A stretch of 45,026 nucleotides of DNA, taken from the IMG/VR virus record IMGVR_UViG_3300016478_000220, positions 1 to 45,026 of that record. One strand, 5' to 3'. The notes beneath the pieces were generated by a model. That model saw nothing but the letters and a program-made list of their open reading frames with translations. It had not been told where the DNA came from and ran no database searches. This stretch comes from a virus (lineage: Duplodnaviria > Caudoviricetes). Shown here piece by piece: positions 800 to 44,405 of this stretch. Made by a program: the position numbers and the translations under genes. Positions within the stretch are counted from its first letter, which is position 1, and every line of letters starts with the position of its first letter.

Positions 800-833
800 A
801 TGGGGAGGTTAATTCCCCAATTAATCCGGCCCT
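800..833. repeat. Dispersed 13-8-13 palindrome, copy 1
   Basis: ATGGGGAGGTTAA ttccccaa TTAATCCGGCCCT, between divergent promoters. Confidence 0.85.
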
Positions 834-895
834 CTCCCTTCCCCTCCCCTCCCCGCCAGCCATCCCCGCCAGCCCGCCCTCGCGCCCGTCCCCTC

Positions 896-924
896 TTGAC
901 AGCCGTCCCGGGAAGAAATAGAAT
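896..924 (+). promoter_or_regulatory. Sigma70-type promoter of the packaging/structural operon
   Basis: TTGACA-17 bp-TAGAAT, followed by AGGAG RBS and ATG 960. Confidence 0.75.
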
Positions 925-959
925 CTCGTTCATCCCCCGCCAATCAGGAGTAGCGCGCA

Positions 960-1544
960 ATGAGCAACGAGATGTATGACATCGACTGGCCCGCGAGTAA
1001 AGGGACCAGCCTGCAGAAGCTGAGCCATACGCACGACCAGATGATTAACTGGCTCCTGCTGAACCCGGAGAAATCCCTGCGGGAGCTCGCGGACGTCTTC
1101 GGCTATTCCCAGGCCTGGGTGAGCACCGTGATCCACTCGGACATCTTCCAGGCCGCGCTGAAAGAGCGTCAGATTCAGCTCGCCTCCCTGGTGGTGCAGG
1201 GTATCCCGGACAAACTCCGGCGAGTGGCGGACATCGGCGTGGAGAAGCTCACGCAGCAGCTCGAACAGAGCGAAGACCCGAAGTTCGTCCTGGACGCCAC
1301 GGACAAGATCCTTCACCGGCTCGGCTACGCCCCGCAAAGCGCCCGTGCCCCGGGAGGTATGGTCGGGGGCCAGTCCCCGGCCGGGGTCACTGTGAGCGTG
1401 ACCGTCACGGACCTGCAGGACGCGCAGAACCTGATCGCGACAGTGGCTCGCGGGAAGTGCGAGAAGGAGATCGAAGGGGAGGTGCTGGAAGTGAAGGAGC
1501 TGGACGTGGACGAGGCGAATGGCGGGATTGGCCGGGAGAGCTGA
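960..1544 (+). CDS. Putative terminase small subunit
   Basis: N-terminal HTH (SLRELADVFGYSQAWVSTVI), helical middle, first gene of the packaging operon. Confidence 0.6.
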   Translation: MSNEMYDIDWPASKGTSLQKLSHTHDQMINWLLLNPEKSLRELADVFGYSQAWVSTVIHSDIFQAALKERQIQLASLVVQGIPDKLRRVADIGVEKLTQQLEQSEDPKFVLDATDKILHRLGYAPQSARAPGGMVGGQSPAGVTVSVTVTDLQDAQNLIATVARGKCEKEIEGEVLEVKELDVDEANGGIGRES

Positions 1545-1545
1545 C

Positions 1546-2052
1546 ATGGACACCCCTGTACAATACTGTCCCCCGCACGGGGGATTTAGGCCAGCCGGCC
1601 AGGTCGTCGCCGCCCACTTCTGCACTCCCCCCAGCCTGACGAAGCGGCGCCTCACGGGTCGGAGGCTCCAGGGCGTCCGGTACGAGAAGAAGGCGCAGGA
1701 GTACCTGCAGGAGCGTCTCGGGGAGGGCTATGTGAACTCCCCGTGGATTCGCTTCCTCGCGGACGGGAAGTGGCGCTGGTGCCAGCCGGACGGGATTCTC
1801 TTCAAGCCCCGGGAGGGTCGGATCGTGATCGTCGAGGTGAAGTACCAGCATACCTCGGACGCTTGGTGGCAGCTCCGGCACCTTTACCAGCCAGTGCTGG
1901 AAGCGATCTTTCCCCGGGACCTCTGGAGGTACGAGGTGTGCGAGTTGGTTAAGTGGTTTGACCCCGCCACCCCGTTCCCGGAGAAAACTGTCTTCGCCCA
2001 TGAAGTGGACATGATGTCGCATGGGTTTAAGGTTCACATCTGGAGGCCCTGA
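1546..2052 (+). CDS. PD-(D/E)XK nuclease-like protein
   Basis: QPDGILF...IVIVEVK motif; ATG 1546 follows the upstream stop; TGATG overlap with the next gene. Confidence 0.6.
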   Translation: MDTPVQYCPPHGGFRPAGQVVAAHFCTPPSLTKRRLTGRRLQGVRYEKKAQEYLQERLGEGYVNSPWIRFLADGKWRWCQPDGILFKPREGRIVIVEVKYQHTSDAWWQLRHLYQPVLEAIFPRDLWRYEVCELVKWFDPATPFPEKTVFAHEVDMMSHGFKVHIWRP

Positions 2053-3536
2053 TGTTTGACAATATTCTCCTGTCTCCGGACGAAGCTGTCCGGATTGGCG
2101 CCACGAGCCTAACCCGCTACGGGCGCATTTTCTTTCCCCGGACCTTCCGCCAAGCCAGTCCCGTGTTTCATGAGAGCATCGGCACGGTGCTGGATAACCC
2201 GGACTTCCGGCAGGTGGCAATCGAGGTCTTCCGGGACGGGGCCAAGACGACCCTGATCCGGACCCTGATCAGCCGCCGCATCGCCTACGGGATTACCCGG
2301 ACGGGCCTGATCGTCTCCGCCAGCCAGTACCACTCCATCATGACCCTGCGGTGGATTAAGCGCCAGATCGAGCATAACAAGACCTGGACGCAAATCTTCA
2401 AGCTGCGGAAGGGGAGCAAGTGGAGCGACGACCATATCGAGATCATTCACGGGAAGTTCGAGCATCCAGTGACCCTGCTTGCCCTGGGTATCACCGGCCA
2501 GCTGCGCGGGTATAACATTGATGACTACCGGCCGGACCTGATTATCTGCGATGACACGTCCACAGACGAAGCGGCCAACTCGGCCGGGCAGCGGAAGAAG
2601 GAACAGAACCTGGTCTTCGGCGCCCTGCTGAACTCCCTCGCCCCGGAGAGCGAGGCGCCGAACGCGAAGGCTATTATCCTCGACACCCCGAAGAGTAAGT
2701 TCGACCTGATCGAAAGCTGCGAGTCGGACCCGGCCTGGAAGTTCTTCCGGTTTGGTATCTTTGACGAAGCCGGGGAAAGCCGCTGGCCGGAACGCTACCC
2801 GACAGCGACTCTGCTCCAGGCGAAGGAGCACGCAGTAAAGGCCGGGCGCCTGACCATCTGGCTCCGGGAGAAAGAGTGTAAGGTTGTGAGCGAGGAGACG
2901 GCCTCCTTCATGGAGAGTCAGCTGATGTATTGGGAAACTCTCCCGGACTACGCCACTTACCTGATCGCTATCGACCCCGCGTCGAGCGATTCCCCGAAGG
3001 CCGACGATAATGTGGTCGCAGTGCTTGCACTCAAAAAAGGGAACGTGTATCTTGTGGAATATCAGGCCGCTACAGGCCAGAACCCTGAGATGGTGACCAC
3101 TGCCGTCTTTGAGTATGCTCGTCGTTTCCGGCCAATCGGCTGCGTGGTGGAGAGTATCGCGTACCAGCGCACGCTGGCTTGGTACCTGGAGAAGGAATTG
3201 CGCAAGGCACGCATCCCCCTCCCGGTGTTCAAGCGTCAGGACAGACGGAGTAAACCTGACCGGATTGTGCAGGCGATCGGGGGCTATGTGGCGTATCAGC
3301 GGCTGTATGTGCGCCGCTCGCACGCGAAGTTCCTTGAGCAGTATATTGAGTTCTCCCCGCTCGCGGAGATTCACGATGACGTGCTGGATGCAGTGTCGAT
3401 CGGGATTGACTGGGCCGAGGACCGGGGACTGGATTCCATCCTCGAAGGCGAGTCCCGCCGGATTCCCGAGGGGGAAGATGATGAAGATGAATACGACGGC
3501 GAAGCCCGTCGCCTTACTTTCAGGAACGCGCCATGA
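2052..3536 (+). CDS. terL: Terminase large subunit
   Basis: Walker A-like FRDGAKTT, Walker B LIICDD, RNase H-like IAIDPA and HDDVLDA. Confidence 0.9.
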   Translation: MFDNILLSPDEAVRIGATSLTRYGRIFFPRTFRQASPVFHESIGTVLDNPDFRQVAIEVFRDGAKTTLIRTLISRRIAYGITRTGLIVSASQYHSIMTLRWIKRQIEHNKTWTQIFKLRKGSKWSDDHIEIIHGKFEHPVTLLALGITGQLRGYNIDDYRPDLIICDDTSTDEAANSAGQRKKEQNLVFGALLNSLAPESEAPNAKAIILDTPKSKFDLIESCESDPAWKFFRFGIFDEAGESRWPERYPTATLLQAKEHAVKAGRLTIWLREKECKVVSEETASFMESQLMYWETLPDYATYLIAIDPASSDSPKADDNVVAVLALKKGNVYLVEYQAATGQNPEMVTTAVFEYARRFRPIGCVVESIAYQRTLAWYLEKELRKARIPLPVFKRQDRRSKPDRIVQAIGGYVAYQRLYVRRSHAKFLEQYIEFSPLAEIHDDVLDAVSIGIDWAEDRGLDSILEGESRRIPEGEDDEDEYDGEARRLTFRNAP

Positions 3537-6727: not shown

Positions 6728-6738
6728 GGAGTACAATT

Positions 6739-7941: not shown

Positions 7942-7969
7942 CCTGACGTAAGGTAGTACCTTGGGGTGG

Positions 7970-8003
7970 ATGGGGCGGTTAATTGCGAAATTAACCTCCC
8001 CAT
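7970..8003. repeat. Dispersed 13-8-13 palindrome, copy 2
   Basis: ATGGGGCGGTTAA ttgcgaaa TTAACCTCCCCAT followed by a T-run; may also act as the capsid-gene terminator. Confidence 0.85.
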
Positions 8004-8046
8004 TTTTTCGCCCCTCAATCCCGTCCACGTTTTCGGTAAGGAGCCG

Positions 8047-9786: not shown

Positions 9787-9929
9787 AGATTAAGGTGAAG
9801 ATGGAACTGAAAAAGATCGACGAGGCTACGGGGGACGTAGTCGAAACGATCGTGCAAGAGTACGAATACCCGCTGCATGGAGGAAACGAACATGGCACTG
9901 ACGACTGCATTCAAGAATCTGCTCGGTAA
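9762..9929 (+). CDS. 55-aa ORF missing from the ORF track (MAEDTAAVKIKVKMELKKIDEATGDVVETIV...)
   Basis: Translated by hand; purine-rich RBS; fills the gap between 9786 and 9892. Confidence 0.55.
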   Translation: MAEDTAAVKIKVKMELKKIDEATGDVVETIVQEYEYPLHGGNEHGTDDCIQESAR

Positions 9930-10269
9930 GCTGGCAATTGGCGGCGCCGCTACCCCGTACAACGCCGCGAACAGCTATATCGGTGTCGGGGATAGCGCGG
10001 TTGCCTTCGCCGCGGCTCAGACTGACCTGCAGGCTGCCGCGAACAAGATGCGAAAGGGGATGGATTCCGGCTACCCGACCGAGGCGAGTGGAGTGCTGAC
10101 TTTCCGCGCCACGTTCGCAGCGGCGGAAGCCAACTTCGCGTGGAACGAGTGGGCGATCTTCAATGCCAACGCCGCTGGTACGATGATGAATCGGAAGGTG
10201 GAAGCCCTCGGCACTAAGACCTCCGCGCAGTCCTGGCAGTTGACTCTCACCATCACGCTGGGGGTGTGA
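9892..10269 (+). CDS. Small beta-rich virion protein (fibre/decoration type)
   Basis: YIGVGD, TDLQA, TFRATFAAAEANFAWNEWAIFNA motifs common in phage structural modules; GGAGG RBS. Confidence 0.7.
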   Translation: MALTTAFKNLLGKLAIGGAATPYNAANSYIGVGDSAVAFAAAQTDLQAAANKMRKGMDSGYPTEASGVLTFRATFAAAEANFAWNEWAIFNANAAGTMMNRKVEALGTKTSAQSWQLTLTITLGV

Positions 10270-14949: not shown

Positions 14950-15614
14950 TGAACTATTCTCCGAACAATGTCCCGGCTGACGTATCCGATCTCCCTAGGT
15001 ACGTCGGGGAAGAATTGTTGCGTATCTCGAGTCTTTTTGGTCTAATAACCAAAGGACGCGGGCTACCCCCGCTGGCTGTTCCTCCGGTCAGGCCAAGGGA
15101 AGGGGACTTAGCTAGTGCAGACGGGGTAGGCTGGAATCCCGGGTCTGGGGCGGGACTGTACGAGTATATCAGTGGACAATGGCAGAAGCTGCGGTACACG
15201 CCACCCGCTGCTGTTCTCCCCCCGGCTTTGTATATTGGGTGGTATCCTGAAAACGCTACGACTAATGGGGTTCTAGTTGTAGGGCAAACTACCCCAGGGT
15301 CGCAGGTATTACTGGATAATAGGTCCGCGTTTTCGCCGTCCTCGGGGCTTTACACCGTCCCGGAGGCTGGTATATATCAATTCTCCGTGGGACATTCTGG
15401 GTACCTTGGAGCTGCGGCTACCTACATGCGGGTGAAGGGTGTAGTTGTCCCTGGATCGTTTGCTTTGCGGTATGGAGACAACTACGGAAATGCGTTGAGT
15501 AGTGTGATAGTGGAGTTGGCTGCGGGAGATACTGTAACTGGATTTGTCCACGCGTGGGACCTCACTACGATTAGCATTTTCAGCGCCTTCATGTCTGGAG
15601 TTAAGATAGGATGA
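14949..15614 (+). CDS. Tail-associated protein with C-terminal C1q/TNF-like domain
   Basis: FSPSSGLYTVPEAGIYQFS...VELAAGDTV...FMSG; start coupled TGATG. Confidence 0.65.
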   Translation: MNYSPNNVPADVSDLPRYVGEELLRISSLFGLITKGRGLPPLAVPPVRPREGDLASADGVGWNPGSGAGLYEYISGQWQKLRYTPPAAVLPPALYIGWYPENATTNGVLVVGQTTPGSQVLLDNRSAFSPSSGLYTVPEAGIYQFSVGHSGYLGAAATYMRVKGVVVPGSFALRYGDNYGNALSSVIVELAAGDTVTGFVHAWDLTTISIFSAFMSGVKIG

Positions 15615-16090
15615 ATGAGGAACTTGGAATTGATGGTCGGGTTAATTCTAAATTAACCTCCCCATTAAAAGCCGCATCTTACGAGTACGTTGAGGGGCCT
15701 CGTGTGCTTGAGGTGTGGCGTGATGTACTTCCCCTGATCGAGAAAGCGGCTGTACATGGTCGGGGGGAGTACCAACCGGAGGACGTCCTTGTGGCTATCC
15801 ACGAGGGCCGGATGCAGCTGTGGCTCTTCCGGGAAGAGGGGAAACTGGCGCTGGTTTGCGTGACGGAAATTATCTCTTTCCCGCGCAAGACAGTGTGCTT
15901 TATCAACGCCCTTGCCGGGTACCGTATGCTGGAAATGTGGGACCTCTTCTTCCCTGTCGCCGAGGTGTGGCTGGCGCAGCTGGGGGTTTCCCGAGTCATG
16001 ACGGAATGCCGGGACGAAGTTGCTGCCAAAACGGAGCGACTCGGGTTTCGCAAACTGGCCAATGTCATGGCTATTGATTTGGAGGACTGA
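15611..16090 (+). CDS. GNAT-like protein of the ejection module
   Basis: G.MQLW, VTEIISFPRK, ECR...RLGF; usual position before ejection proteins; start uncertain. Confidence 0.55.
   Translation: MNEELGIDGRVNSKLTSPLKAASYEYVEGPRVLEVWRDVLPLIEKAAVHGRGEYQPEDVLVAIHEGRMQLWLFREEGKLALVCVTEIISFPRKTVCFINALAGYRMLEMWDLFFPVAEVWLAQLGVSRVMTECRDEVAAKTERLGFRKLANVMAIDLED
15633..15665. repeat. Dispersed palindrome, copy 3 (7-bp spacer)
   Basis: ATGGTCGGGTTAA ttctaaa TTAACCTCCCCAT. Confidence 0.8.
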
Positions 16091-18717: not shown

Positions 18718-21700
18718 ATGGTACAACAGGTTGAGCTTTTCGACGGATCTCGAATCGAGTTCGAAGACGGCACCTCGCAGGAGGTGATGGACTCCGTAGC
18801 TGCGAAACACACGCAGGGACTGCAGCGGAAGCAGGCGGCCCAGACTCCCGAGCAGGATGAACTGCGGGAGAATGCGAGTTATGGTGGGGCCATCGCTGCT
18901 TCCCTGAAAGAGGGTGTACGGCAGGGGGTAGGTGGCGCGATGGAAGCTGCCGGGGACGAACTGCTGAAAGAATCCGCCCCCTCGTTCTCCGGGAAAGTCA
19001 TGGAAGCGATGGCGAGTCCGACGCGAGCCCTGGATATGCCAAAGACTATTTTCGAACAGACCTTCTTGAAGTCCCGCGAGCTGGTGGAAGGGGAGGACGC
19101 CGCCGCTTCTCGTCGGGAGACCGGACAGAACCTGCAAGGGGCTGGCGCGGAACTCGGGGACCAGGCCCGGGAGAACCTGCAAGCCGCTACCCCGCAGGAT
19201 TTGAGCCTGATGGGTGAGGCAGGCATTTCCATCGCCAACTCCGTCGGGCAGATGGTGCCGTGGCTGGTTGGTGGGCGCTTGGGCGCCGTGCGGCCAGGGT
19301 TCGCTACTGCCGGCGCCCTGAGCCAGTTCGGTTCCCAGTCCTTCGGGCAAGCGTACAACGAGGCGAAGGCAGCCGGGGCTGAGCCGGATGTGGCGTATAA
19401 GGCTGCGCTCGCGAACGGCTGGTCCGAGGTGCTGGGGGAGAAGTTGGGCCTGGATACCCTGCTGAAAGGGGGGAGCAACTGGCTGAAGAAGTTCGTCGCG
19501 CAAGAAATCGGCGGAGAAGAGTTTACGACGATCGCGCAGAGCCTCACGGAAAAGGGCCTGTACAATCCGGAAAAGTGGTCGTCCCCGGACGAGGTTATGC
19601 ATGACCTGACCCTGACCGCGCTGAGTGCGGCTGGCGGCGCTGGTGTTGTGGGCGGGGTAGGGAAGGCTCTGGACTACACGCAGCGGCGCCGTACGGAGCA
19701 GGTATTCGAGAACGTAGACGCGCACAAGGAACTTGCCCGGATCGTCGGTGAGGCGGAGGCAGGGATTTCGGCTCCGGCGGTGGTCCCTTTGCGGGAGCCC
19801 ACTCCACAGGAACTGGAGGAAGCCGCCGTCGTGAAGAAGCAGCGGAGGCAGGGACTTCAGGTCGAGCTCACCCCGGAACAGGTTGTGTTCGGGGAGAAGC
19901 TGGACCGGGCCTTCTCGCCGGAAGTGTTTAAGGATGAAGGTGGGATCAGCGCGGCGGTCGCAGCCGCTCGGAGTGAACGCTTCGTGGAAGAGACGCTGCC
20001 GTTCAGTAAGCGCCCTATCGCCTTCGCTGGGAGTAATAACCAGCATGTGCTGGGCCTCACCCTGGAACAGATCGGGGAAAAGGGCCTGAGCGAAGGTGCT
20101 GTCCTGGCTGTGCGAGGAGACGCTGGAGAAGAAATCTTCCCGGACGCGGTCTACTCGAAGCTTACGGAGGATCTGGATACGTGGAGGAAGAAGTACATCC
20201 CGGACGCTCGGATTGTGATGAACCTGACGCAGTTCGCCGGGGAAAAGCAGAAGTCCTCCTTCGGGGCCTTTGAATCGATCTCCCTGCCGAGTGGACAGCT
20301 GTACGTGATCACCCCTCGGGAAATGCCGAGCTTCTCCCACAGCGGCGGGGATTATAAGACGCAGCTCGCCGTCCTGGGCGGCATTGTGCACGAGTTCGGC
20401 CACGCCATCAAGCACCACACGTTCTTCGAGGGGTTGGCCGGGAAACTCGACGACGGGGCGCGCATGCGTCTGGAATCCGGTACCATTACCGGGAACCTTT
20501 CACTGGCCGAGATCGAGACGCTGCGCACCGTCGCCCCGGAAGAGGCGAACCTTCTCCACAGCTGGATTTCCCTGCGTACCAGCGCCCTTCAGGGGCATAT
20601 GACCGCTCACGAGTTTATTGAGCGTTGGGTCGGGATTCGTAAGCTGGGGGATAGCATCGCCAAGACCACTGAACGGGAGCGGAGCGTGTACTCCTGGGCG
20701 AAGGGGGTTATGGGCCGACCGCTGGAAGGTGTCACCGCCAAGGAGCTGATCGGCAAAGCCTTCGGGAATGCGGAAACGGCGCTGAGCTTTGACGAGTTCA
20801 TGGCGGAGCAGTTCTCCCGGTACTCCTACTCGGTGGGGGACATGCAGAAGAGTGGCTACGCCAAAGTGCTGCAGAATGTGATGGGCAAGCTCCGGGCCTT
20901 GTTCCTGGAGCTGAAAGGCCTGCGCGGGCAGAGCGGGGAAAAGCTGATCCAGCCGGGGGAAACCTTCTCGCAGTGGATGGATTCCATGACGCTGCGGAAT
21001 GCGAACAAGAAAGTCCCGACGGGGCGTATCCGCCTGAACAAACGGGTCAAGGAAGCCCAAAAGGCACTCCTGCCGAAGAAACTGGCTGAGACCCTGGCGA
21101 AGGTTAAGAAGGAGGAAGCGGTCCCTGCACCTATCCCGGAACAGGCCCAGCCGGAAGAGTCCATCGTCGCCACGGCTATCCCGACCAAGGAGCTGCTGGA
21201 GAAGCAGCTGGACATGCTGGCGAACCGCGGCGCCTTTTACCATTTCCCCGCAGGGCAGGAGGCGGCTCGCCGGATGATTAAGGGGATGATCGAGCGGGGC
21301 CAGCTGGAACGGGCCATCGCCAAGATGGAGGAAATCTCTGGCGAGACCATCCAGTGGGATCGGGAATACTCCTCGAAGGTGTTGAGCCGCTTGCCGGATA
21401 AGGCGAAGGTGAAGGCGGAGACCCTCCGCGGGCTGATGCGTCAGGCCGATATCAAGCAGCAGGAAAAGGTATTCTGGGCAAAGTTCATGCAGGAAAATCC
21501 GGAAGGCACTTTCCTCTCGGAAGAGCTGAAGCAGGCGGTGCAGGACGCCACGCTTCCCCTGGAGCGCGTCCCCGCCGCAGACCAGAATCTGGCGGATTAT
21601 GGTATCCTGCGCGTGTTTCCCGAGGAGATGTGGGGGGAACCCTATGCGGCTACTGTTAACATCTACAAGGGCCCTGTGGAGCTGGGCGGGGCCGAGCGGC

Positions 21701-24700: not shown

Positions 24701-26169
24701 ATTACTCCCAGGCCCTGTACGATACCGCGAGCTATATGTGGCTCAACTCCAGGATCGAGCAGGCGAAGGGAGACCCTGTGGAATCGCAGCGACTGAACGA
24801 GGTCATGTCGGTGATTACGCAAGCGACCGCCGACGGGGTACTGGACCAGAGCTACGCTTATTTCCTCGCGGGGCAGGCGAATGCGAGCGGACTCATGCGG
24901 AGTGTGCACAATACCTGGCTGGGTAAAGCCACGCACGTGTTTACTGAAATGGGCATGGCGCCGTTTAAGCTGATCGAATCCGCCAACCGGATGAGTGCGC
25001 TTCTCACCTTTTACTCGGCGGAGCGAGGGGCCGGGACCAGTCCGGGCGAGGCCTACGAGCGGGCGATTGCGAAGGTGAATCTGTTGCAGAACTCGTACGA
25101 TGCGCCGAACCGGCCAGCGTTCATGCGGGGGAAGAAGAGCATCTTGTTCATGTTCGCGAGCTACGCGCAGTTCATGGGCTGGATCATGACCGGCGGGTAC
25201 GAGCGGGCAGCCCGGGCTGACATGCGCGCGAGGGGGAGGGACCCCGGCTCCTGGATGGCAGGAACCACGATGAAGCTCTGGCTCATGTACCTGGCCCTGG
25301 GTGGGATCGGGGGTCTGCCGTTTGCGGAAAACGCTATGGACTTTGTTCAGTTCGTCTGGCGGAGGATGTTCGGGAATCCTGAGAATATCGAAATCGAACT
25401 GCGCCGGTTCATTACCGAGTTGGGGATGGACTCGAACGTGGTTATGAGCGGGATGATGCACGACGCTGGCGGGTTTAACCTCTCAGGTAGCTTTGGTCTC
25501 GGCCGGCTCATCCCCGGCACGGACCTGCTGAACAAGCAATGGGAGTCCCCCGGACAGGCGCTGGGCGACGCGGGGATTAAATTCGCGGGACCGGCTGGTG
25601 GCTTCTACCAGGGCGTGGCGAAGGCCGTGGCTGAATTCGGGAAGGGGAATCTCGGGGAGGGGCTGAAGAACGTCCCCGGCATGGTCGGGAGCATCTCGAA
25701 GGGGATGGACGCTTGGCTCGATCAGGAGGACCGTCCCACTTACGGGGTCACCACGAAGGCGGGGGAACGGCTGGTATTCGACCGGAAGACCGGGGAGTAC
25801 CGCGACCTGTCCGCAAAGGAAATCGCTGGCATGTTGATGGGGGCGCAGCCCACGGTCCTGTCCGAGACGAAGGAGGCCCGGTACCTGGTCTCGTCGGAAC
25901 AGATGTACTGGCAGACTCGGCGGAGGGATTTGGTGGATAAGTACTTCCGCGCGGTGAGTACCGGGGATGATCAGCTCAGGACTGATGTGCGGACTGCCAT
26001 TGACGGGTTCAATGACCAGGCTCCCTATCCCGGCCTGCGTATCACCGGGAAGCAGCTCGCGGAAAGCGTGAAAGCCAGAAGGCGGGCGGCTCATGCGATG
26101 GAAGTCTTCGGCTCCGGGCAGAAGACTTACCGGGGGATTGCTGAGGACGTGCGGGAAGTTACGCGGTGA
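18718..26169 (+). CDS. Giant internal virion / polyvalent protein with a zincin-like HExxH domain and an ART-like domain
   Basis: 2483 aa; VHEFGH plus DEFMAE; VLELQSD domain; GNPLRVWRGS..AFWFTD..YLNLENPL..GHDGLI..YAIFQPEQ ART-like domain; helical C-terminal region. Confidence 0.8.
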   Translation: MVQQVELFDGSRIEFEDGTSQEVMDSVAAKHTQGLQRKQAAQTPEQDELRENASYGGAIAASLKEGVRQGVGGAMEAAGDELLKESAPSFSGKVMEAMASPTRALDMPKTIFEQTFLKSRELVEGEDAAASRRETGQNLQGAGAELGDQARENLQAATPQDLSLMGEAGISIANSVGQMVPWLVGGRLGAVRPGFATAGALSQFGSQSFGQAYNEAKAAGAEPDVAYKAALANGWSEVLGEKLGLDTLLKGGSNWLKKFVAQEIGGEEFTTIAQSLTEKGLYNPEKWSSPDEVMHDLTLTALSAAGGAGVVGGVGKALDYTQRRRTEQVFENVDAHKELARIVGEAEAGISAPAVVPLREPTPQELEEAAVVKKQRRQGLQVELTPEQVVFGEKLDRAFSPEVFKDEGGISAAVAAARSERFVEETLPFSKRPIAFAGSNNQHVLGLTLEQIGEKGLSEGAVLAVRGDAGEEIFPDAVYSKLTEDLDTWRKKYIPDARIVMNLTQFAGEKQKSSFGAFESISLPSGQLYVITPREMPSFSHSGGDYKTQLAVLGGIVHEFGHAIKHHTFFEGLAGKLDDGARMRLESGTITGNLSLAEIETLRTVAPEEANLLHSWISLRTSALQGHMTAHEFIERWVGIRKLGDSIAKTTERERSVYSWAKGVMGRPLEGVTAKELIGKAFGNAETALSFDEFMAEQFSRYSYSVGDMQKSGYAKVLQNVMGKLRALFLELKGLRGQSGEKLIQPGETFSQWMDSMTLRNANKKVPTGRIRLNKRVKEAQKALLPKKLAETLAKVKKEEAVPAPIPEQAQPEESIVATAIPTKELLEKQLDMLANRGAFYHFPAGQEAARRMIKGMIERGQLERAIAKMEEISGETIQWDREYSSKVLSRLPDKAKVKAETLRGLMRQADIKQQEKVFWAKFMQENPEGTFLSEELKQAVQDATLPLERVPAADQNLADYGILRVFPEEMWGEPYAATVNIYKGPVELGGAERHFEDDPGYAAHSRTINFSGVPGRYVLELQSDLFQQASELYMGGLLGEAQLEQLTAKIGEVGQLTETVGKLSDLRANAIAQNSPAGVLRAETALKAARQARDAAKREVTLYVDSEAYKAPIGSTLHQYHIASQNWMFRLAQEELADAFESGQDAVYFPVGDTNRRIQRWPYAVEIEWDGAPATALVVEDSMSVTVRGQFGQRTFHLKDAPQMQEVYDTALAQKTLYSKVAPIVRNYAELEKRLVKEFGGARLEMPDGTTWLRVPTSAYGKKVLLWDEENPLNSSLAAPIDFAGVAEVDYRNPEVIAQAAGMWERLGFQSPFFLRWGGDTKVRGADGNPLRVWRGSGDRVTYLDPTTRGGQTGSASARKAFWFTDNQRQAGFYADQAAIRARRKPKDEFAREATKLREELADLRELAVMDLKQEEREVVSKGILSRMKRLHTLHTAEAMSRWAAPAVQGFYLNLENPLEVDALGAGYDDKVWNGWVEQAIAGGHDGLIVRNGHDPYPGTTYAIFQPEQAKLENNIGTFDPTDNLHWDEESPGQLAAREGAKVVQGIWAKTKLRAANMAAKGVDALTQLQQTAAAQPDDVPLQLFMKLSRYGMKMKNNLQVDAEDLVGDMQKSGPGLIEDLHRVMTAEWRGGTLASTLVGKDENGEVVWGGDKPTTPEARALVASWEVVDGLRLRKFFSQHGVDVMSERGKKILAFYLRARNIMLKQFQGLENTLRYKALHLYEGAPGVLSTEYWEIEQLMQKLRDTPFLPRGAFGNHVILLQEKSPETGRFVTAERYHYEDAADFQAAYTKMQAAARNNPNLRVKSQELDDYSGLVMQFPRDFLEKLAEAGDFTDEQLESVADLLTTSRYSRIAERFDKIAAQSLKANGDFVRVFADFALRNSNYIWKMHFSTAMRGAISQERSAIRRLEKAEDLTPEAQLAQLTRLRRNVRLMEKALEYMLYPPQEFQTARMWITMFYLAYNLKTALMNFSTQMNTAMAVTTEFGEVKGAKYYSQALYDTASYMWLNSRIEQAKGDPVESQRLNEVMSVITQATADGVLDQSYAYFLAGQANASGLMRSVHNTWLGKATHVFTEMGMAPFKLIESANRMSALLTFYSAERGAGTSPGEAYERAIAKVNLLQNSYDAPNRPAFMRGKKSILFMFASYAQFMGWIMTGGYERAARADMRARGRDPGSWMAGTTMKLWLMYLALGGIGGLPFAENAMDFVQFVWRRMFGNPENIEIELRRFITELGMDSNVVMSGMMHDAGGFNLSGSFGLGRLIPGTDLLNKQWESPGQALGDAGIKFAGPAGGFYQGVAKAVAEFGKGNLGEGLKNVPGMVGSISKGMDAWLDQEDRPTYGVTTKAGERLVFDRKTGEYRDLSAKEIAGMLMGAQPTVLSETKEARYLVSSEQMYWQTRRRDLVDKYFRAVSTGDDQLRTDVRTAIDGFNDQAPYPGLRITGKQLAESVKARRRAAHAMEVFGSGQKTYRGIAEDVREVTR

Positions 26170-27407: not shown

Positions 27408-27441
27408 ATGGGGAGGTTAACACGGGAATTAACCTCCCCAA
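27408..27441. repeat. Dispersed 13-8-13 palindrome, copy 4
   Basis: ATGGGGAGGTTAA cacgggaa TTAACCTCCCCAA in the 57-bp intergenic gap. Confidence 0.85.
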
Positions 27442-27447: not shown

Positions 27448-28224
27448 TCAGGCGTCCCAGGCCTCGTCCTGTGCGTCCCCCCAAGACTTGGTTGAAGTCT
27501 TCAAGCCGGTGGGAATGATCAGCGGATCGGGGTACGGGATTACGACGTTCAGCAGGTCACGCAATTGCGGCTTCACCTGCGGCCACAGGTGGATCGGGCA
27601 CTGGCCGACGAGCGAATCGTGAACCTGCAGCAAAATCTGGGCCTCCTTGAGTTGTCTGACGATACGGTTCCAGGCGGTGTTGATGACGATGGCGACTGTG
27701 GATTGAGGCACCCAGGCCAACGCTTCCGGGAGCAGCCCTTCGATCCGCTCGAAATACGTGCGCGAGAACCCAAACGGGTTAGTGACTGTCCGGGTTGCCG
27801 CAAGCTGATCGAGGACTTTATTATGCCACGCGCGAATCGCAGGGTGCAAGCGAAACCATTCGTTCTGAAAGTCCTCGGCTTCTCGTCTGGAGATATGGAG
27901 AGCTAACGCGCAGGTCGGGGCTGTCCCGCCGTAGTTAGTAAGGTGGACCCCCATTTTGGCGTAGGTGTAATACGGGTCCGTCTTTCCGTCGGGACCAGCC
28001 TTCGCCCCGAAAATGGCTTTCGAGTTTACACAGTGAACCTTCGGTCCCCGCCCAGCGGCGTGATCCCGGAAGGCCTGCTTGAGAGGCTCGTCGTTTGCCT
28101 CCCAGGCCACGATCTGCGCGTCGGCGCCGGCCAAGTCCACGTCGAAAATCAGATGCCCCGGATCGGGAATGTAGAACTTGCGGATATTGGGCAGGATAAT
28201 GCTGCCAGCTTCTTGGATTTGCAT
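27448..28224 (-). CDS. polA: DNA polymerase family A, C-terminal catalytic part
   Basis: Motif A DVDLAGADAQ, motif B AKMGVHLTNYG, motif C LLQVHDSLV. Confidence 0.85.
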   Translation of the reverse strand: MQIQEAGSIILPNIRKFYIPDPGHLIFDVDLAGADAQIVAWEANDEPLKQAFRDHAAGRGPKVHCVNSKAIFGAKAGPDGKTDPYYTYAKMGVHLTNYGGTAPTCALALHISRREAEDFQNEWFRLHPAIRAWHNKVLDQLAATRTVTNPFGFSRTYFERIEGLLPEALAWVPQSTVAIVINTAWNRIVRQLKEAQILLQVHDSLVGQCPIHLWPQVKPQLRDLLNVVIPYPDPLIIPTGLKTSTKSWGDAQDEAWDA

Positions 28225-29885
28225 CAGTCTTTCTCCTCGCCTTTGGGGATGTTTTGGAGGTTCCCGCCGGAACCGAATGCGTTGGAGCTGGACGAAAGGC
28301 GGAAGGTTTCCGCGCCGCCAGTGTTGAAGGAACAGCGCATCCGTCCGTCAATATCGAGCGGCATAAGGCAGAACGTTTTGAGAAAGACAGCCATCGAACG
28401 CCGCTTGGAGATCAACTCCACAAGGGGGATGATCAGGGGCTCCTTTTGGCGGAGCGTTTCAAGGGCCTTATCGTCGCAGGATGGGCGCTTGGTCTTGCGG
28501 TTAATCTGGCGGGGGAGACGGAGCTCGTCGTAGAAGTACTTCTGCATCTGTACGGGAGAGCCGACGTTGAACGGGCGGCCGATGATAAGGCTGATCAGCT
28601 CATCGTACTGAGCGATGACCGCCATCAGCTTCCCCGCAGTTTCCCCTCTGGCTTTTTGATCCACGGCGCAGCCAGTGTGCATGGTCTGGAGGGCACTCCG
28701 AGACACCTCCATCAGGAACTGGTACTGTTCCGTCTTGTTGTAGTAGATCAGGAGTTCCTGCAGGACTAGGTCTACCTCGAAAGTCGCCATCACGTCTTTG
28801 CAGTTGTATAGCCAATACTGCTCCATGTTTTCGGGTAGGCGAGAGTAGTCGTCCATCTCGTCTTTCCAGTAAACGTGGTAGTGGCAGTACATCGAGGACA
28901 GGAAGTCCAGGGACTTCGGCAGGCCGGGGAAGAGCGCATGCTGAGCCAGCATCGTGTCGTCTGTCTGATTCGGGTGATAGCCCAGGTGCTTGGCGAAATG
29001 CTGGTTATCGTAGTTGAAGTTCTGCCCGATCACCTCAGTGTTGGGGTGGGTAAGGAGCTCACGGAGTAGGAAGTGGAGTTCGATCTCTTCCTCTTCCGAG
29101 TAGAAGTCCCCGTTGAGGGTAATGAATGGGATGCAGATAGCATCGCGGCAGGACCAGGCGATACCGAGACAGGAAATGTGTCTGGCGATGGTTTCCAAGT
29201 CGACCGCGATCCTCAGCCTGTTACCGGAGAGCGGGACGGCCAGGAGATCGAGCAGAACCCTTTTCGCCACGGGGAAGGTAGGAGCTGTGATTGTGTTGTA
29301 GACGGGAGGCGTGTACAGGTCCGGCCGGTCGACCAGATTGCGTACCCGCTTCAGGTCACGCAAGACGAACCCTTTTATCTCCCACTTGCGGATAACTGTC
29401 GCCGCGGGGTAAGTGGGGATGACGCGGATATTAGCGTCCACTACACAGGCGAGGTTGGACCCGCGCCAAGTAGCGACAGCCCCGAACACTCCGGCGCAGG
29501 CGAACATAGCCAGATCACCAAAGGCGATGATGACTTCTGGCTTGATCCGGGCGATCGTTTCGTGAAGGTGCTCGATCTCAGCCACAAGCTTCGGGTGTAC
29601 CCAGGTATTGTGCCTGGTCTCTGTAAGCCCGTGCTTGGCGGCGTGAGCCTTCGTCTGGGAGTAGTACAGATCCGGATCGTCGCCCTGCGCCCGGAAGCGC
29701 ATGACCGGGGTGACGTAGGTGGAGGTGCGGGGGATGCCCGCCTCGCCGAGAAGTTTCCAGGCAAATTCCCCCATCTTGCCGGATAGGGGGAACTGCTTCC
29801 ACAGGTCGTCGGCGGTAGCGAACTCCGTGACGACCATGATTTTAGCGGCGGGGTTTCCCCCGCCACGCACAGTGGGCGCGCTCAT
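28224..29885 (-). CDS. polA: DNA polymerase family A, N-terminal part: UDG-like domain, 3'-5' exonuclease and thumb
   Basis: GGGNPAAKIMVV UDG-like start; Exo I AVDLET, Exo II QNFNYD, Exo III YNCKD; FNVGSP.Q, TFRLSSS, NLQNIP. Confidence 0.85.
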   Translation of the reverse strand: MSAPTVRGGGNPAAKIMVVTEFATADDLWKQFPLSGKMGEFAWKLLGEAGIPRTSTYVTPVMRFRAQGDDPDLYYSQTKAHAAKHGLTETRHNTWVHPKLVAEIEHLHETIARIKPEVIIAFGDLAMFACAGVFGAVATWRGSNLACVVDANIRVIPTYPAATVIRKWEIKGFVLRDLKRVRNLVDRPDLYTPPVYNTITAPTFPVAKRVLLDLLAVPLSGNRLRIAVDLETIARHISCLGIAWSCRDAICIPFITLNGDFYSEEEEIELHFLLRELLTHPNTEVIGQNFNYDNQHFAKHLGYHPNQTDDTMLAQHALFPGLPKSLDFLSSMYCHYHVYWKDEMDDYSRLPENMEQYWLYNCKDVMATFEVDLVLQELLIYYNKTEQYQFLMEVSRSALQTMHTGCAVDQKARGETAGKLMAVIAQYDELISLIIGRPFNVGSPVQMQKYFYDELRLPRQINRKTKRPSCDDKALETLRQKEPLIIPLVELISKRRSMAVFLKTFCLMPLDIDGRMRCSFNTGGAETFRLSSSSNAFGSGGNLQNIPKGEEKD

Positions 29886-33115: not shown

Positions 33116-33454
33116 TTACAGGTCCCAGTCCTTGCAGATGGTTTCAATATCGTGCTTGAGGACGGGGAGGGGAAGGTTAAGCATGAACTCGGTATCCCAG
33201 AGGAGCGAGACCGTGCCGGGAGGATTCATAAACTTGGAGGCCTTTTCGCGGCAACCTGGCTTGTTGCAATGCAAGGCCCAGGCGAACCACGGAGTTGCCG
33301 GAGTAACGACTCGCCGCGCCCAGATGTCCCCGCACGAGGGGCAGAAGTAGGCGTACTGCCGGGGAAGCACGACCTGATTCCGCATGAACTCCCGGCTGAT
33401 GGGGGATGGACCCCCCACCGGCCTGTTGTTGATGATCCAGAGCTGGGTTGGCAT
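33116..33454 (-). CDS. Zn-finger hypothetical protein
   Basis: CPSCG...CNKPGC; AAGGAG RBS before ATG 33454. Confidence 0.6.
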   Translation of the reverse strand: MPTQLWIINNRPVGGPSPISREFMRNQVVLPRQYAYFCPSCGDIWARRVVTPATPWFAWALHCNKPGCREKASKFMNPPGTVSLLWDTEFMLNLPLPVLKHDIETICKDWDL

Positions 33455-33456
33455 CG

Positions 33457-34356
33457 TCACTCCTTGTGGAGGGGATTCCAGTTATTCGGCTCGAAGTAGA
33501 CTGGCACCCAGGCCTCGGGGTCCGGACTCCCACACAGGCGGGCGAAGGGGCATCCGCCATAGCTATTGCACGCATGCTTGTCCAGGGTTTTCGGGAAGAA
33601 CTGTCGCTCGAAGTGCCACAGCATATTCTCGATGGTGAAGTGGGTGGTTTCCTGCCACTCGTCCAGCATCCATTGCGGGCGGTAGACGAGCGCCTGGGCG
33701 TGCCCGAAGCCGTTTTTGAGGATCGAGGTTCCCCGGACAAAGAACCCGGCGAGGGGGATTCCGTACACCTTAGCCGCGTAGGTGTAGCCGGTGAACTGGC
33801 TGTCTAGGTCCCAGTTCCGCATCCACTGGTTCCCGAGCTGCGTGGCGGTCTTGTCGTCCTCCCCAAAGGCGGCGCCGTTGTAAGTGGCGAGAAGGTCGAA
33901 GCGGCCGGTGAAGATCAGGGGATCGCCGGTCAGGGGGTGCCGCTGGTCGAACGGGACAGCGAAGGAGAACTCGATCCCGCGCTTCCCATTCGGGAGTTCC
34001 ATCGGGACCAGGACGTCCTGCCCGAGGGGGTACTGGCAGAAGTACTCGATCACGGCGTAGAAGACCCGGTCGAGGTCCTTGGCCGTCTCGTGGTCGATCT
34101 CCGCATCCCCCCAGAACAGGAGGAAGGCGTGAAGACCCTGGGCGATGGCGTCATCCTCGTCCATGCCCTTTTCGAAGTAGCAGGTGCGCGCCACTTCCAG
34201 GCCCCGGGCGTAGGCCCCCCCGGCATGGAGGTGGATGTTCCCGCCCTTCGGGGTGATCTTGCGGAGGCTGGAGTAGTACCAGTGACGTTTGCATCGCTTG
34301 AACGACGACATAGCGCTGTTGTCGATGAAAGCGGGGAAGGAGATTTCTTTGGTCAT
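33457..34356 (-). CDS. PD-(D/E)XK Cas4/RecB-like exonuclease
   Basis: SSFKRC, GRFD, DDKT, QFTGY, C-terminal C..YGGCPF..LC. Confidence 0.8.
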   Translation of the reverse strand: MTKEISFPAFIDNSAMSSFKRCKRHWYYSSLRKITPKGGNIHLHAGGAYARGLEVARTCYFEKGMDEDDAIAQGLHAFLLFWGDAEIDHETAKDLDRVFYAVIEYFCQYPLGQDVLVPMELPNGKRGIEFSFAVPFDQRHPLTGDPLIFTGRFDLLATYNGAAFGEDDKTATQLGNQWMRNWDLDSQFTGYTYAAKVYGIPLAGFFVRGTSILKNGFGHAQALVYRPQWMLDEWQETTHFTIENMLWHFERQFFPKTLDKHACNSYGGCPFARLCGSPDPEAWVPVYFEPNNWNPLHKE

Positions 34357-34613: not shown

Positions 34614-34852
34614 TTCGGACCTCCCCCGGTAAGGCCGAGATTCCCCATCAGGGTGTTGAGGTCGACGGGGGCTGCCTTGGCTTTCGCTTCAGCCTTGGCG
34701 ACGGTCTTGGGGGCGGCCGCGGCGACTGCCCCTCCGCGGAGTTCGCGGTAGCTGATAAGGATCTGGCGGTACTCTTCAGCCGGGAAGGTTTCCCCGGCGA
34801 GTACCCGCTTGCGAAGATCGTTCAGCTCTTCGAGGGATTTAAGGTTGGACAT
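34610..34852 (-). CDS. Hypothetical protein
   Basis: Start reassigned to MSNLKS after AAGGAG. Confidence 0.65.
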   Translation of the reverse strand: MSNLKSLEELNDLRKRVLAGETFPAEEYRQILISYRELRGGAVAAAAPKTVAKAEAKAKAAPVDLNTLMGNLGLTGGGPK

Positions 34853-35060
34853 TGTTATCTCCTTGCGTTTGGGTGGGACGGGTGCGCATGGAGTTGACCC
34901 ACGCGCGGAAAAGCTCGTTCGCCTTGTCGGAGAGGGCGCCGTAACCGATGCGCCCCTTGACCGGATCAAGGAGAAGGAGTGTGACTTCAGCCGACAGCGG
35001 CTCGTCGAGGTAAATCTTGTGCTCGACGCGGGCGACCGTGAGTTTCTTGCGGCCTCGCAT
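34839..35060 (-). CDS. Small protein, possible ribbon-helix-helix DNA binder
   Basis: Strand (VEHKIYLD), helix, G..S, helix pattern; GGAGG RBS. Confidence 0.5.
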   Translation of the reverse strand: MRGRKKLTVARVEHKIYLDEPLSAEVTLLLLDPVKGRIGYGALSDKANELFRAWVNSMRTRPTQTQGDNNVQP

Positions 35061-36823: not shown

Positions 36824-36852
36824 ATTATCCCACAATTATCCCAGCGGGGCAA
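36824..36852 (-). promoter_or_regulatory. Sigma70-type promoter (extended -10)
   Basis: TTGCCC-17 bp-TGgGATAAT; contains a direct repeat of ACAATTATCCC. Confidence 0.6.
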
Positions 36853-36872: not shown

Positions 36873-36906
36873 ATGGGCGGGTTAATTATTGTATTAACAT
36901 CCCCAT
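36873..36906. repeat. Dispersed 13-8-13 palindrome, copy 5
   Basis: ATGGGCGGGTTAA ttattgta TTAACATCCCCAT, 20 bp upstream of the -35 box. Confidence 0.85.
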
Positions 36907-37008: not shown

Positions 37009-37527
37009 TCAGGTCAGCGCGGGGAGCTCGAGGCTGGCCGGGGTGGCCTTGGCCAGGGCTTCGGCGGCCTTGCGGGCGCGGATCTCGGCGATCTTCGCCT
37101 TGACAGCCGGGTGGGCGCGGAACTGCTTGCGGACCTCGTCGGTGGCCGCTTCGAGCGAGGCCTCGACCGTGGCGACGTCGATGCCCTGCAGCTCGGACAG
37201 AGCCTGGGCGAGTTCGCCGACCTTGGCGACGCCGGAGCCGGTGCGGGCGGCGTTGAATGTGCCGGATTGCAGGTTGTTGATGACCTTCTCGGCGCAGGCC
37301 GTACCGAAGGCGAAGTCGCCGCCGGCCGAGGCGTAGCTGTCGCCAATCTTCTGCATGGCGCCGTGGATCATCAGCTCGGTCTGGACCTCTTCGGACAGGG
37401 TGTCCAGGTCGATCGACAGGACGGTGCCGTTACCGAAGGTGAACGTGCAGACCTTGCCCTCGCTCGACTTCACGCAGAACTTCGGGGCCTTGGTGACTTC
37501 CGGGGTGGTGTTTTCAGCTTCCGACAT
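37009..37527 (-). CDS. Hypothetical protein, paralog of 27..539
   Basis: GAGGAG RBS, strongly biased codons, own terminator. Confidence 0.85.
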   Translation of the reverse strand: MSEAENTTPEVTKAPKFCVKSSEGKVCTFTFGNGTVLSIDLDTLSEEVQTELMIHGAMQKIGDSYASAGGDFAFGTACAEKVINNLQSGTFNAARTGSGVAKVGELAQALSELQGIDVATVEASLEAATDEVRKQFRAHPAVKAKIAEIRARKAAEALAKATPASLELPALT

Positions 37528-39663: not shown

Positions 39664-39667
39664 GGCG

Positions 39668-40230: not shown

Positions 40231-40231
40231 G

Positions 40232-41789: not shown

Positions 41790-41798
41790 GGTTGGCTC

Positions 41799-42197: not shown

Positions 42198-42198
42198 G

Positions 42199-42627
42199 TT
42201 AATACCCCTTACAAAAGGGGAGGGGCTTTTTCCCGGCGAGGTCGCGCGCAATAATGCGCTTTTGGAGCGCGCGCAGCCACTTGATCCGGCGGGTGAAGCC
42301 CTCGGATTTCTCCCAGATATCGGAGTCCCAGCCGTGTTTCTCCTTGAACTTGTACATACCAAGGACCAAGTTCAATGTCTCCCGGTCGTGGTGCACTCGC
42401 GGGATATGGGCAGGGTATCGATACTGACGAATCCGGTGATAGATGTAGCTCTTCAGCCAGGCGCGTTCTGCCTTGAACTTCATAATGCTGGTCATGTGGA
42501 AGCAGATAGACCGCGTGCGCACAAGCGGCGCAATCAGCGGGGAATCACGATGCCGCTCCAACTCCGTGCACAGCTGGTCGATCAGCTGGAGCAGATCGAG
42601 TATGGACACTTCTTGCTTCTCATTCAT
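42199..42627 (-). CDS. Hypothetical protein, possible distant third paralog
   Basis: SICFHM, TLNLVL, RIKWLRAL; AAGGA RBS. Confidence 0.65.
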   Translation of the reverse strand: MNEKQEVSILDLLQLIDQLCTELERHRDSPLIAPLVRTRSICFHMTSIMKFKAERAWLKSYIYHRIRQYRYPAHIPRVHHDRETLNLVLGMYKFKEKHGWDSDIWEKSEGFTRRIKWLRALQKRIIARDLAGKKPLPFCKGY

Positions 42628-42715
42628 TTCAATTCCTTTCTCAAAAGCATGGGTGGACAGACTCGGGCCTCACCTCCGGGAGAACCCCCTTCGGTGAGGC
42701 CGCGCTTCGCGCTGG

Positions 42716-43009
42716 TTATGCGGGGGAGGCCCAGGGGATTAGCGTCAGTCCCTCTTCGAGAGCGGTCACGGTCTCCTCGGACAGGGCGGGGAGGATGGAC
42801 GGGTACGCCTGGCGGTATTCCGTTATATCTGCGGGGAGCGTGATAACCCCTCCCGGATGGCGGAAGGGAAGCTGCCTTACCTCGAGCAACTCCACGCCGG
42901 GCGGCTCGCCGGGGGACTCGGGAGTGGCCTCGACGCCGGGGAGGAAGTTGAACTCCACCTCGACCACGGCTTCAGTCCCGGGGAGGAATGCGCTGGCTGT
43001 GACGATCAT
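42716..43009 (-). CDS. Hypothetical protein
   Basis: Start MIVTAS overlapping the upstream stop. Confidence 0.55.
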   Translation of the reverse strand: MIVTASAFLPGTEAVVEVEFNFLPGVEATPESPGEPPGVELLEVRQLPFRHPGGVITLPADITEYRQAYPSILPALSEETVTALEEGLTLIPWASPA

Positions 43010-43461
43010 GCTTTTCTCCGGAGAAGGGGGGTGACGGCGCGGAGCCACTGTTCCACCGGGCGCTTGGAGTCCGGCTGGCCGATGTTGGTGAGATTCGCGG
43101 CCTGTGCCCGGGAGAGCTGCTCAATCAGGCCGGGGAAGTCCCGGGGAGGCTTGAGGCGCTCCACGCGGAAGAAGGCGTACCCGGTCCAGGCCCAGCCATA
43201 CACCTCGTCCGTGAAAGGCTGGGCGAGGGCTTTGAGCCGAGGCTGCGCATAGCGGGGATAGGTTCGGCCGAGATGCTTGATCCAGGCCTGGGACAGCTCC
43301 TCGGCGAGGTCGAAGAGGAAGTCGTCCCGGTCCGGGCACCTGGTCGGGACCGGATACTTGGAGAGGTACTCGGCGAGGGCGATCGCCTGGGGAAAGAACT
43401 TGTGCGAGATGGGGGTGGCGACGGCCGGGGACGGACTGACGCTTTCTGTCTCTTCATTCAT
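43006..43461 (-). CDS. Hypothetical protein
   Basis: AGGAG RBS; 151 aa. Confidence 0.65.
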   Translation of the reverse strand: MNEETESVSPSPAVATPISHKFFPQAIALAEYLSKYPVPTRCPDRDDFLFDLAEELSQAWIKHLGRTYPRYAQPRLKALAQPFTDEVYGWAWTGYAFFRVERLKPPRDFPGLIEQLSRAQAANLTNIGQPDSKRPVEQWLRAVTPLLRRKA

Positions 43462-43520
43462 GGCATGGCTCCTGTGGAATGGGCTGGCGCAGGGCGTGAT
43501 GCGGCTGCGCAGAGCGGGGG

Positions 43521-44120
43521 TTAGTTGATCGAGTCGGTGCCGGGGACGAGCGTGAGGATGCGGACGCGGCGAGCGCGAGAGCTGCCGGGGATGAGCGACT
43601 TCCCCTCGCCCCGGAAGAACTCCTTATTCGCGGCGAAGAACGGCCCCATGTTCTCGCCTTCCCGGACGAGCTCGTCTACCATGCTGAAGTCCTTCCCGTC
43701 CACCTGATCCACGATGGGACTGGACTGGAGGCTGCGCAGAGCGGAGAGGATGTGGGCCATGATCCGCTTATTCGAGGAGTTCTCCCCGTGATTTTTCTCC
43801 TCGAAGGCGGCGAAGGTCAGGCCGTCCGTCTCGTAAAAGACCCAGCCATACACGAACAACTCGTGCTTGGCGTAAGTCTTCCCGTATTCATCGTAGGTAA
43901 GCTCGACGACTTCCCAGGGAAGGGAGTGCTGTTCCTGCAGGACCTCCAGCAAGTGATAGTCCCGGGACGAGCAGAAGCTCCCGTACGTGCCGAAGATGTC
44001 GTTGAGGTCCTGCGGGGGATGAGTGTCGTTGGTGTAAGCCTGGTAAAGCTCCGCCACGGCGATCAGGCCGGAGAGGAACTGGGCGAAGGTAGTGCGCGGG
44101 TAGCCGGGGAGGGTTTCCAT
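43521..44120 (-). CDS. First early gene, hypothetical
   Basis: Start reassigned to METLPG (GGAG RBS, promoter just upstream). Confidence 0.7.
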   Translation of the reverse strand: METLPGYPRTTFAQFLSGLIAVAELYQAYTNDTHPPQDLNDIFGTYGSFCSSRDYHLLEVLQEQHSLPWEVVELTYDEYGKTYAKHELFVYGWVFYETDGLTFAAFEEKNHGENSSNKRIMAHILSALRSLQSSPIVDQVDGKDFSMVDELVREGENMGPFFAANKEFFRGEGKSLIPGSSRARRVRILTLVPGTDSIN

Positions 44121-44156
44121 GGAATAAGCTCCGGGAAGGGGGTGGATGGAATGGGA

Positions 44157-44185
44157 AAAATACCACAACTCCCCCAGCTTGGCAA
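44157..44185 (-). promoter_or_regulatory. Early sigma70-type promoter
   Basis: TTGCCA-17 bp-TGgTATTTT. Confidence 0.55.
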
Positions 44186-44208
44186 CATGGGGGTGAAGTG
44201 GGAGGGAG

Positions 44209-44337
44209 AATGGGCTGAATGGCCAATGAAATCCAATGAAATCCAATGACGTCCAATGGCTCGCGGTAGGTGGCGAATGGCTCGCGGTAGGTGGCGAATG
44301 ATGGCGAATGATGCACAATCATTCCAATCGTTCAATG
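44209..44337 (+). repeat. Phased (C/G)AAT(G/C) repeat array, left arm
   Basis: AATG/AATC at mostly 10- or 21-bp intervals, including an exact 21-bp duplication. Confidence 0.8.
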
Positions 44338-44371
44338 ACTTTGGGGTGACCCCCCCATTCCCCCGGATATA

Positions 44372-44405
44372 ATGGGCCGGTTAACTCCCGAATTAATCCG
44401 ACCAT
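44372..44405. repeat. Dispersed 13-8-13 palindrome, copy 6
   Basis: ATGGGCCGGTTAA ctcccgaa TTAATCCGACCAT. Confidence 0.8.

Follow-up and report, generated by a model that had tools for sequence, protein, structure and literature searches.

The window analysed here, a stretch of 45,026 nucleotides (positions 1 to 45,026 of IMG/VR record IMGVR_UViG_3300016478_000220), holds an integrase-less 45-kb podovirus across which six palindromes are dispersed. We think it probable, from sequence comparison and a structural model, that these palindromes are double-stranded operators for the phage's own ribbon-helix-helix (RHH) protein, encoded by gene 34839..35060 on the minus strand, and that this protein of 73 amino acids acts through them as a genome-wide, self-limiting repressor. 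The proposal is based on the sites themselves, their syntenic conservation, the phage-specific sequences, the overlap of sites with promoters in relatives, the predicted fold of the protein and its co-divergence with the motif. An earlier note on this DNA had put forward an undescribed cis-acting system; the system is indeed conserved in relatives, each with its own version of the sequences, and no account of such a palindrome-RHH pair was found in the literature searched, which covered few subscription papers and no supplements.

All six copies lie exactly where the earlier note had placed them, at 800..833, 7970..8003, 15633..15665, 27408..27441, 36873..36906 and 44372..44405 (sites 1 to 6); the spacer is 8 bp long (N8) in each except site 3, which has N7. 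The gaps between consecutive starts, given before as round figures, come to 7170, 7663, 11775, 9465 and 7499 bp. A strict consensus allowing up to 3 mismatches recovers 3 copies in the window and 0 in 100 shuffles, the de novo palindrome-family score is 30, shuffles reaching at most 5, and in a scan with a position weight matrix (PWM) the six copies reach 36-44 bits, all other sites staying at or below 14 bits. Some of the first description needs trimming. The copies are real, but as 13-8-13 palindromes they are imperfect, since their arms pair at only 8-12 of 13 positions. The TTAA said to be invariant is present in 12 of 12 half-sites of the window and in that genome alone is it so constant, because half-sites differ between phages. 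The spacers, described as variable, are unequal but not fully free, beginning with TT in 4 of 6 copies and ending with AA in 5 of 6. An AT tract lies outside each arm. Another GC-rich N8 palindrome-like element, with a different core, occurs at 44741-44774 and falls outside the family by PWM.

Palindromes were clustered de novo in each genome, with 8 shuffles of each (maximum 5) and a cut-off score of at least 10. A family of 3-7 copies reaching this score is present in 19 of the 26 clade genomes, window included. In G007 and G017 the family scores 6 and syntenic sites are visible, and the clustering gave no clear family in Mel-JY34, G026, G027, G029 and the partial G011. Among 19 held-out sequences, mostly fragments, 6 score at least 10, including 3 of 5 complete genomes; one of these, G042, is near-identical to G023. 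Three outgroups were considered. No family above the null was found in PaMx41 and Kuura, whereas LS06-2018-MD01 has the strongest family, with 9 copies (score 47 vs 14). In this Desulfofustis phage (L164, OP947158) the nine copies are near-perfect palindromes with an N1 spacer, spread over 243-42971; two small genes that look RHH-like by eye (862-1191 and 9872-10105) are unrelated to the window's RHH gene.

Half-site and geometry are each genome's own, homogeneous within a genome and different between genomes, and spacer length is constant to within 1 bp per genome. The places recur: sites stand ahead of terS, behind the capsid gene, ahead of or inside the ejection module, at the polymerase-primase junction, and at early or middle promoters. 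Motif conservation in related phages, a check suggested by the earlier note, was thus found as a palindrome family kept at syntenic places in most relatives. The place before terS, that of site 1, is the most conserved, a site standing upstream of terS in 14 genomes; the polymerase-primase junction carries one in 13. Site 3, which precedes the ejection module, has syntenic copies in G001 and G006; it lies inside the 5' end of ORF (open reading frame) 15611-16090, or just upstream if the gene starts at GTG 15704. Among half-sites of the G-rich class, 124 in number, a 7-bp G-rich core is bordered by AT tracts on both sides, an arrangement that would suit an RHH dimer with two minor-groove arms. 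Arrays of TTAA with a 12-bp period, at 9970-10035 of contig L015 and 4650-4725 of contig L016, were discounted as presumed origin iterons; the two contigs are unrelated, share no gene with the window and contain the arrays within open reading frames.

Motif similarity was compared with protein identity by a partial Mantel test over 19 genomes, with late-gene and replication-gene divergence controlled, one of each near-identical pair retained and 2000 permutations. G008 (truncated RHH gene), G018 and LS06-2018-MD01 (RHH gene undetected) and G046 (late genes missing) were dropped. The RHH protein gave a partial r of 0.45 (p=0.0005, the permutation floor), the best of 14 proteins, after 0.40 in an earlier set. 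Its homologues are found in 24 of the 26 clade genomes and escape detection only in two partial ones; none was detected in the three outgroups. Among the binders suggested by the earlier note, the RHH-like product of 34839..35060 is therefore the best supported, by this co-divergence together with its predicted fold.

The gene is predicted, from the alignment and a structural model, to encode a ribbon-helix-helix protein. An alignment of 33 sequences shows a basic N-terminal arm (GR-K/P), an alternating strand, a helix, a beta-hairpin insertion marked by DP...YG, and a second helix; the GR-P arm we take to be AT-hook-like. A homologue search with the single window sequence found only itself. 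The family profile matches PDB entry 2K6L, a CopG-family RHH protein (E=0.006, weak), as well as an antitoxin and NikR, and Pfam RHH_1, RHH_3 and RHH_6 are each matched by 2 of the 33 members. The AlphaFold 2 model has a predicted local distance difference test (pLDDT) score of 88.9, a model from the single sequence being poor (pLDDT 59). It superimposes on 2K6L with Z 4.7 and a root-mean-square deviation of 2.7 across 51 residues, the match list being filled with RHH proteins; an N-terminal strand followed by two helices is thus seen as in RHH structures, with modest scores.

Promoters were called with approximate sigma-70 weights, strong calls being counted within 150 bp of a site. Thirty-two such calls lie near sites, and in 17 of them the site centre is no more than 30 bp from +1 (p=3e-5 against a uniform distribution), six of the 17 coming from the near-identical G023 and G024. 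In 13 of the 32 the site stands 50-170 bp upstream. The regulator's own gene is among those with a site close by: in G016 a site covers the spacer and -10 of a TTGACA-17-CATAAT promoter directly before the RHH gene, and L205 has a palindrome roughly 100 bp ahead of that gene. Sites over promoter elements, those of the regulator included, are what a repressor-operator system is expected to have, here on predicted promoters.

In the window, the three copies noted before as lying upstream of a -35 box do so at distances of 62, 43 and 21 bp. Site 5 is 21 bp upstream of a predicted minus-strand sigma-70 promoter, TTGCCC-17-GATAAT (36824..36852), that serves the operon containing the RHH gene and replication genes, and it overlaps a weaker TTGCGT-17-TACAAT; it is the likely candidate for an autoregulatory operator of that operon. 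Site 1, which pairs at 8 of 13 positions, lies between the divergent promoters of a 170-aa gene and terS; its centre is at about -114 of the predicted plus-strand late promoter TTGACA-17-TAGAAT (896..924). Site 6 overlaps the -10/+1 of a predicted plus-strand promoter at 44346-44373. Site 4, paired at 12 of 13 positions, is at the junction where the DNA polymerase gene stops (27448) and the primase gene probably starts (ATG 27390); no gap of promoter size exists there.

Several results weigh against this proposal. Mel-JY34, G026, G027 and G029 have an RHH homologue and no family at the cut-off; conversely, LS06-2018-MD01 has the strongest family and no detected homologue of the window's RHH protein. 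In the covariation, which covered 14 proteins and in which related genomes are non-independent, Sak4 (0.25) and the primase (0.24) are also positive, the RHH strand scores no higher than the rest of the protein (r=0.41 for each), and the best RHH sequence window ranks 13 of 3909, below windows of Sak4, portal and major capsid protein. The RHH protein of the analysed genome, taken alone, has no Pfam or PHROG match; all structural Z-scores of its model are low (best 5.1), and a Foldseek search of the PDB with it gave no match. Finally, the sites of the window itself overlap no strong promoter call, only weaker ones.

One could envision the same RHH protein reading the sites for a mainly structural purpose, looping, compacting or tethering the phage DNA, with promoter overlap as a secondary matter. 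The fold matches of the model include ParG, Omega, pCXC100 ParB, MatP and CdbA; 30 of the 88 classified sites are intra-operon, in the polymerase-primase and late-internal classes (88 of the 117 called sites were classified by hand and oriented with transcription); and relatives occur as free 46-51-kb contigs in bins. Spacing is also mildly over-even. The even spread pointed out by the earlier note does exist in the window (p=0.037), but only 5 of 18 genomes reach p<0.05 and gaps range from 1.5 to 33.6 kb. We attribute this mild evenness to the position of sites at module junctions, and the spacing test gave no support to a role for a fixed period. ParG, Omega and pCXC100 ParB belong to the type Ib centromere-binding RHH proteins, which double as repressors; unlike those systems, the present one has single dispersed palindromes in place of clustered repeat arrays and no ParA (PF13614 was absent, with the control positive in 14 of 14 genomes). 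The parS-like loading once suggested is further weakened by the ParB_N domain of the window, which is joined to an N6/N4 methylase that fails to covary with the motif. Above all, sites are strongly enriched at -10/+1, and a structural role, which the earlier note had judged at least as good as operators, loses ground to this promoter overlap in relatives. We consider it unlikely that structure is the main job.

About as unlikely, in our view, is that the sites serve as operators or activator sites for some other phage protein. The helix-turn-helix (HTH) protein at the small-terminase position (960..1544, plus strand), the 170-aa paralogs, a Zn-finger gene (33116-33460) and an unaligned fast-evolving gene come to mind. 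The TerS-like protein has an HTH and a site upstream of its gene in the 14 genomes mentioned, the 170-aa genes occur in all 26 clade genomes, and LS06-2018-MD01 has sites without the window's RHH family. However, the covariation favors none of those that entered it: partial r is 0.00 for TerS (0.12 for its recognition helix), 0.12 for the 170-aa protein (best-scoring paralog only) and 0.08 for the ParB-methylase, so that the two other binders suggested at the outset, the methylase and the paralogs at 27..539 and 37009..37527, do not track the motif. The TerS-position protein, tested as reader, was thus not supported, nor were the nuclease and SSB. The Zn-finger gene was undetected in G001, G002, G008 and G020, all of which have clear families. 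PaMx41 ORF4, annotated as small terminase, is a weak profile match of the 960..1544 protein (E=0.004). As to the 170-aa paralogs, the two of the window are 41% identical and share an invariant HG..QK.GD motif; the family, with 52 homologues and usually two copies per genome, gave no match in Pfam, PHROG or named Atlas entries, and is a core family of the clade whose function these resources leave unassigned.

The palindromes might instead act as RNA or single-stranded DNA hairpins alone, as terminators, processing sites or priming signals, without any reader of double-stranded DNA. The post-capsid copies do evolve in this manner. Over 13 of them we counted 21 G.U and 0 A.C mismatches (p=1e-6, genomes being non-independent) and found more T behind the stem; in most closer relatives the palindrome is long and its core changes are compensated (GGAA/TTCC, AGAA/TTCT, ATAA/TTAT), and several distant relatives have a plain TTCG terminator after the capsid gene. 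Site 2, on the plus strand, lies 28 bp past the capsid stop, pairs at 12 of 13 positions and is followed by a T run; GC-rich hairpin, U tract and selection for sense-strand pairing are all found there, and it is likely both a binding site and an intrinsic terminator, each predicted from sequence. In contrast, the other four classes, with G.U to A.C ratios of 11:10, 12:14, 13:22 and 21:40, do not evolve as RNA hairpins. The poor pairing of site 1 and its position between divergent promoters are also hard to reconcile with hairpins alone, arm sequence is common to the copies within a genome, and a search of Rfam gave no match for the palindromes. The lack of G.U bias outside the post-capsid class, the fixed spacer and the shared arms point to a reader of double-stranded DNA, and make hairpins alone quite improbable.

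Still less probable is that the sites bind a transcription factor of the host, one that would vary from host to host, for all that the motif differs between phages with probably different hosts. Positions are fixed across very different motifs, and the motif co-diverges with a phage gene. The earlier note had weighed a known host-factor site against its own proposal; in two bacterial bins of 4.9 and 3.8 Mb, 7 of 7 and 5 of 5 motif matches fall on the phage contig and none outside it, although binning may be wrong and the bins may not be the hosts. Recombination at loxP/FRT-like sites can be dismissed almost entirely: the 13-8-13 geometry that inspired it belongs to the window genome only and varies among relatives, no tyrosine recombinase was found (PF00589 gave no match in the clade search, with the control positive in 14 of 14 genomes, and none is present among the 72 ORFs of the window), the spacers of the five N8 copies are alike at no more than 6 of 8 positions, and gene order is conserved. 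The loxP and parS readings thus fail for want of a recombinase, of ParA and of equal spacers.

Repression by the RHH protein could work as follows. Host sigma-70 polymerase would transcribe the RHH gene, starting at the promoter next to site 5, and the product would build up until each site is occupied by two dimers. These would sit one per G-rich core, about two helical turns apart, and contact the AT tracts on either side with their basic arms. Early and middle promoters, that of the RHH operon included, would be blocked where a copy covers their -10/+1. Copies that lack a promoter, at the polymerase-primase junction, before the ejection genes and after the capsid gene, may, judging from their position, hinder elongation as roadblocks and so lower expression downstream; the post-capsid copy would in addition be an intrinsic terminator. 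For the copy that precedes the terS promoter by 80-115 bp, either repression or activation is conceivable.

The 72 ORFs scanned in the window are divided between a plus strand with terminase, SU10-like portal and capsid, tail, lysis and ejection genes and a minus strand with exonuclease, Sak4, ParB_N-methylase, split PolA and primase. Two ORFs make up PolA (27448-29885), whose N-terminal domain is UDG-like; Mel-JY34 has it as a single ORF, whereas G007 and G016 show additional interruptions. In a virion protein of 2483 aa (18718-26169), residues 1328-1520 match an ART-PolyVal domain below threshold. Mel-JY34 and VS-ABTNL-3 are the only cultured phages found to be close relatives, the PaP2/PaMx41 group being distant. 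Four matches in GTDB lie on contigs of 7-51 kb, three of them of phage-genome length, so that no integration was seen; a capsid search of plasmids gave no match.

Near the end of the contig, a 73-nt inverted repeat holds site 6 in its loop. The surrounding segment, 44217-44640, also has short tandem repeats and a long A run, and is possibly an origin or terminal region. The record is classed as linear, and the distance of some 1.5 kb that the earlier note gave between copies 6 and 1 across the junction is tentative. At the right end (44997-45026), two contigs of the probable source run branch off past base 45026, one of 284 nt at depth 105 and the other of 306 nt at depth 46, which suggests a terminal repeat or a variant end. 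The loop of a minus-strand terminator at 45026-45005 recurs in the terminator at 36961-36940 behind the 170-aa paralog, which fits adjacent genome ends.

The palindromes are real and conserved; together with the RHH protein they probably form a variant of the repressor-operator theme that has apparently gone undescribed. For an almost uncultured podovirus clade they provide a testable regulatory circuit in which protein, sites and affected promoters are named. The RHH family has essentially no PHROG entry, and more than 20 natural protein-motif pairs offer material for the study of specificity in RHH proteins and of orthogonal repressors. That the motif turns over fast while its positions stay fixed suggests that co-infecting relatives are under pressure to avoid regulating each other, a pressure familiar from temperate immunity systems and unexpected where lysogeny genes are lacking. 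Pseudolysogeny without such genes occurs in the distant Jamesmcgillvirus group, whose phage Shea persists but does not integrate (PMC13348215). This motivates a similar case for the present clade, even though PaMx41, of Shea's group, has neither a palindrome family nor the window's RHH protein. It is tempting to speculate that the clade maintains a non-integrated carrier (pseudolysogenic) state and superinfection-immunity groups by a one-gene RHH switch with 3-9 operators, controlling termination by binding sites that are themselves terminators or roadblocks. We hold this to be a rather speculative idea, with the odds well against it; if it were true, each phage-specific motif would mark an immunity type, and the family would amount to a natural library in which 70-aa repressors and their operators form orthogonal pairs.

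Phage RHH regulators are familiar from Arc and Mnt of P22, which can be grouped with the viral proteins SvtR, AvtR and F55. SvtR of SIRV1 acts as a repressor at its own promoter and binds at three further viral sites (PMC5569661). These systems resemble the present case in the small RHH protein (predicted here), the inverted-repeat operators, the control of its own promoter and of a few viral sites, one at a structural gene, and the promoter occlusion (all proposed here). They differ from the system of this bacterial podovirus clade, with its half-site cores 21-24 bp apart, beta-hairpin insertion, GR-P/K arm and intra-operon copies, one of which evolves as a terminator. The distance between cores is presumably nearer the geometry of NikR.

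The other parallel is with Cluster A mycobacteriophages such as L5 and Bxb1, which have 20-30 oriented 13-bp repressor sites, some in promoters and most of them stoperators, with motif differences that correlate with repressor distance (PMC6550527). Both systems have dispersed sites, some of them in promoters and the majority elsewhere, phage-specific motifs and a reader, here a candidate, encoded by the phage, and reader and motif co-diverge in the present clade as well, its genomes being non-independent. Unlike the Cluster A phages, which are temperate, this podovirus clade has no integrase or ParA that we could find, and its sites are 3-9 symmetric two-half palindromes at fixed module junctions with an RHH protein as candidate reader; symmetric sites, few copies and the lack of lysogeny genes exclude it from the stoperators proper. 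By analogy, we propose that the palindrome-RHH system would work like a blend of Cluster A stoperators and SvtR-type regulation.

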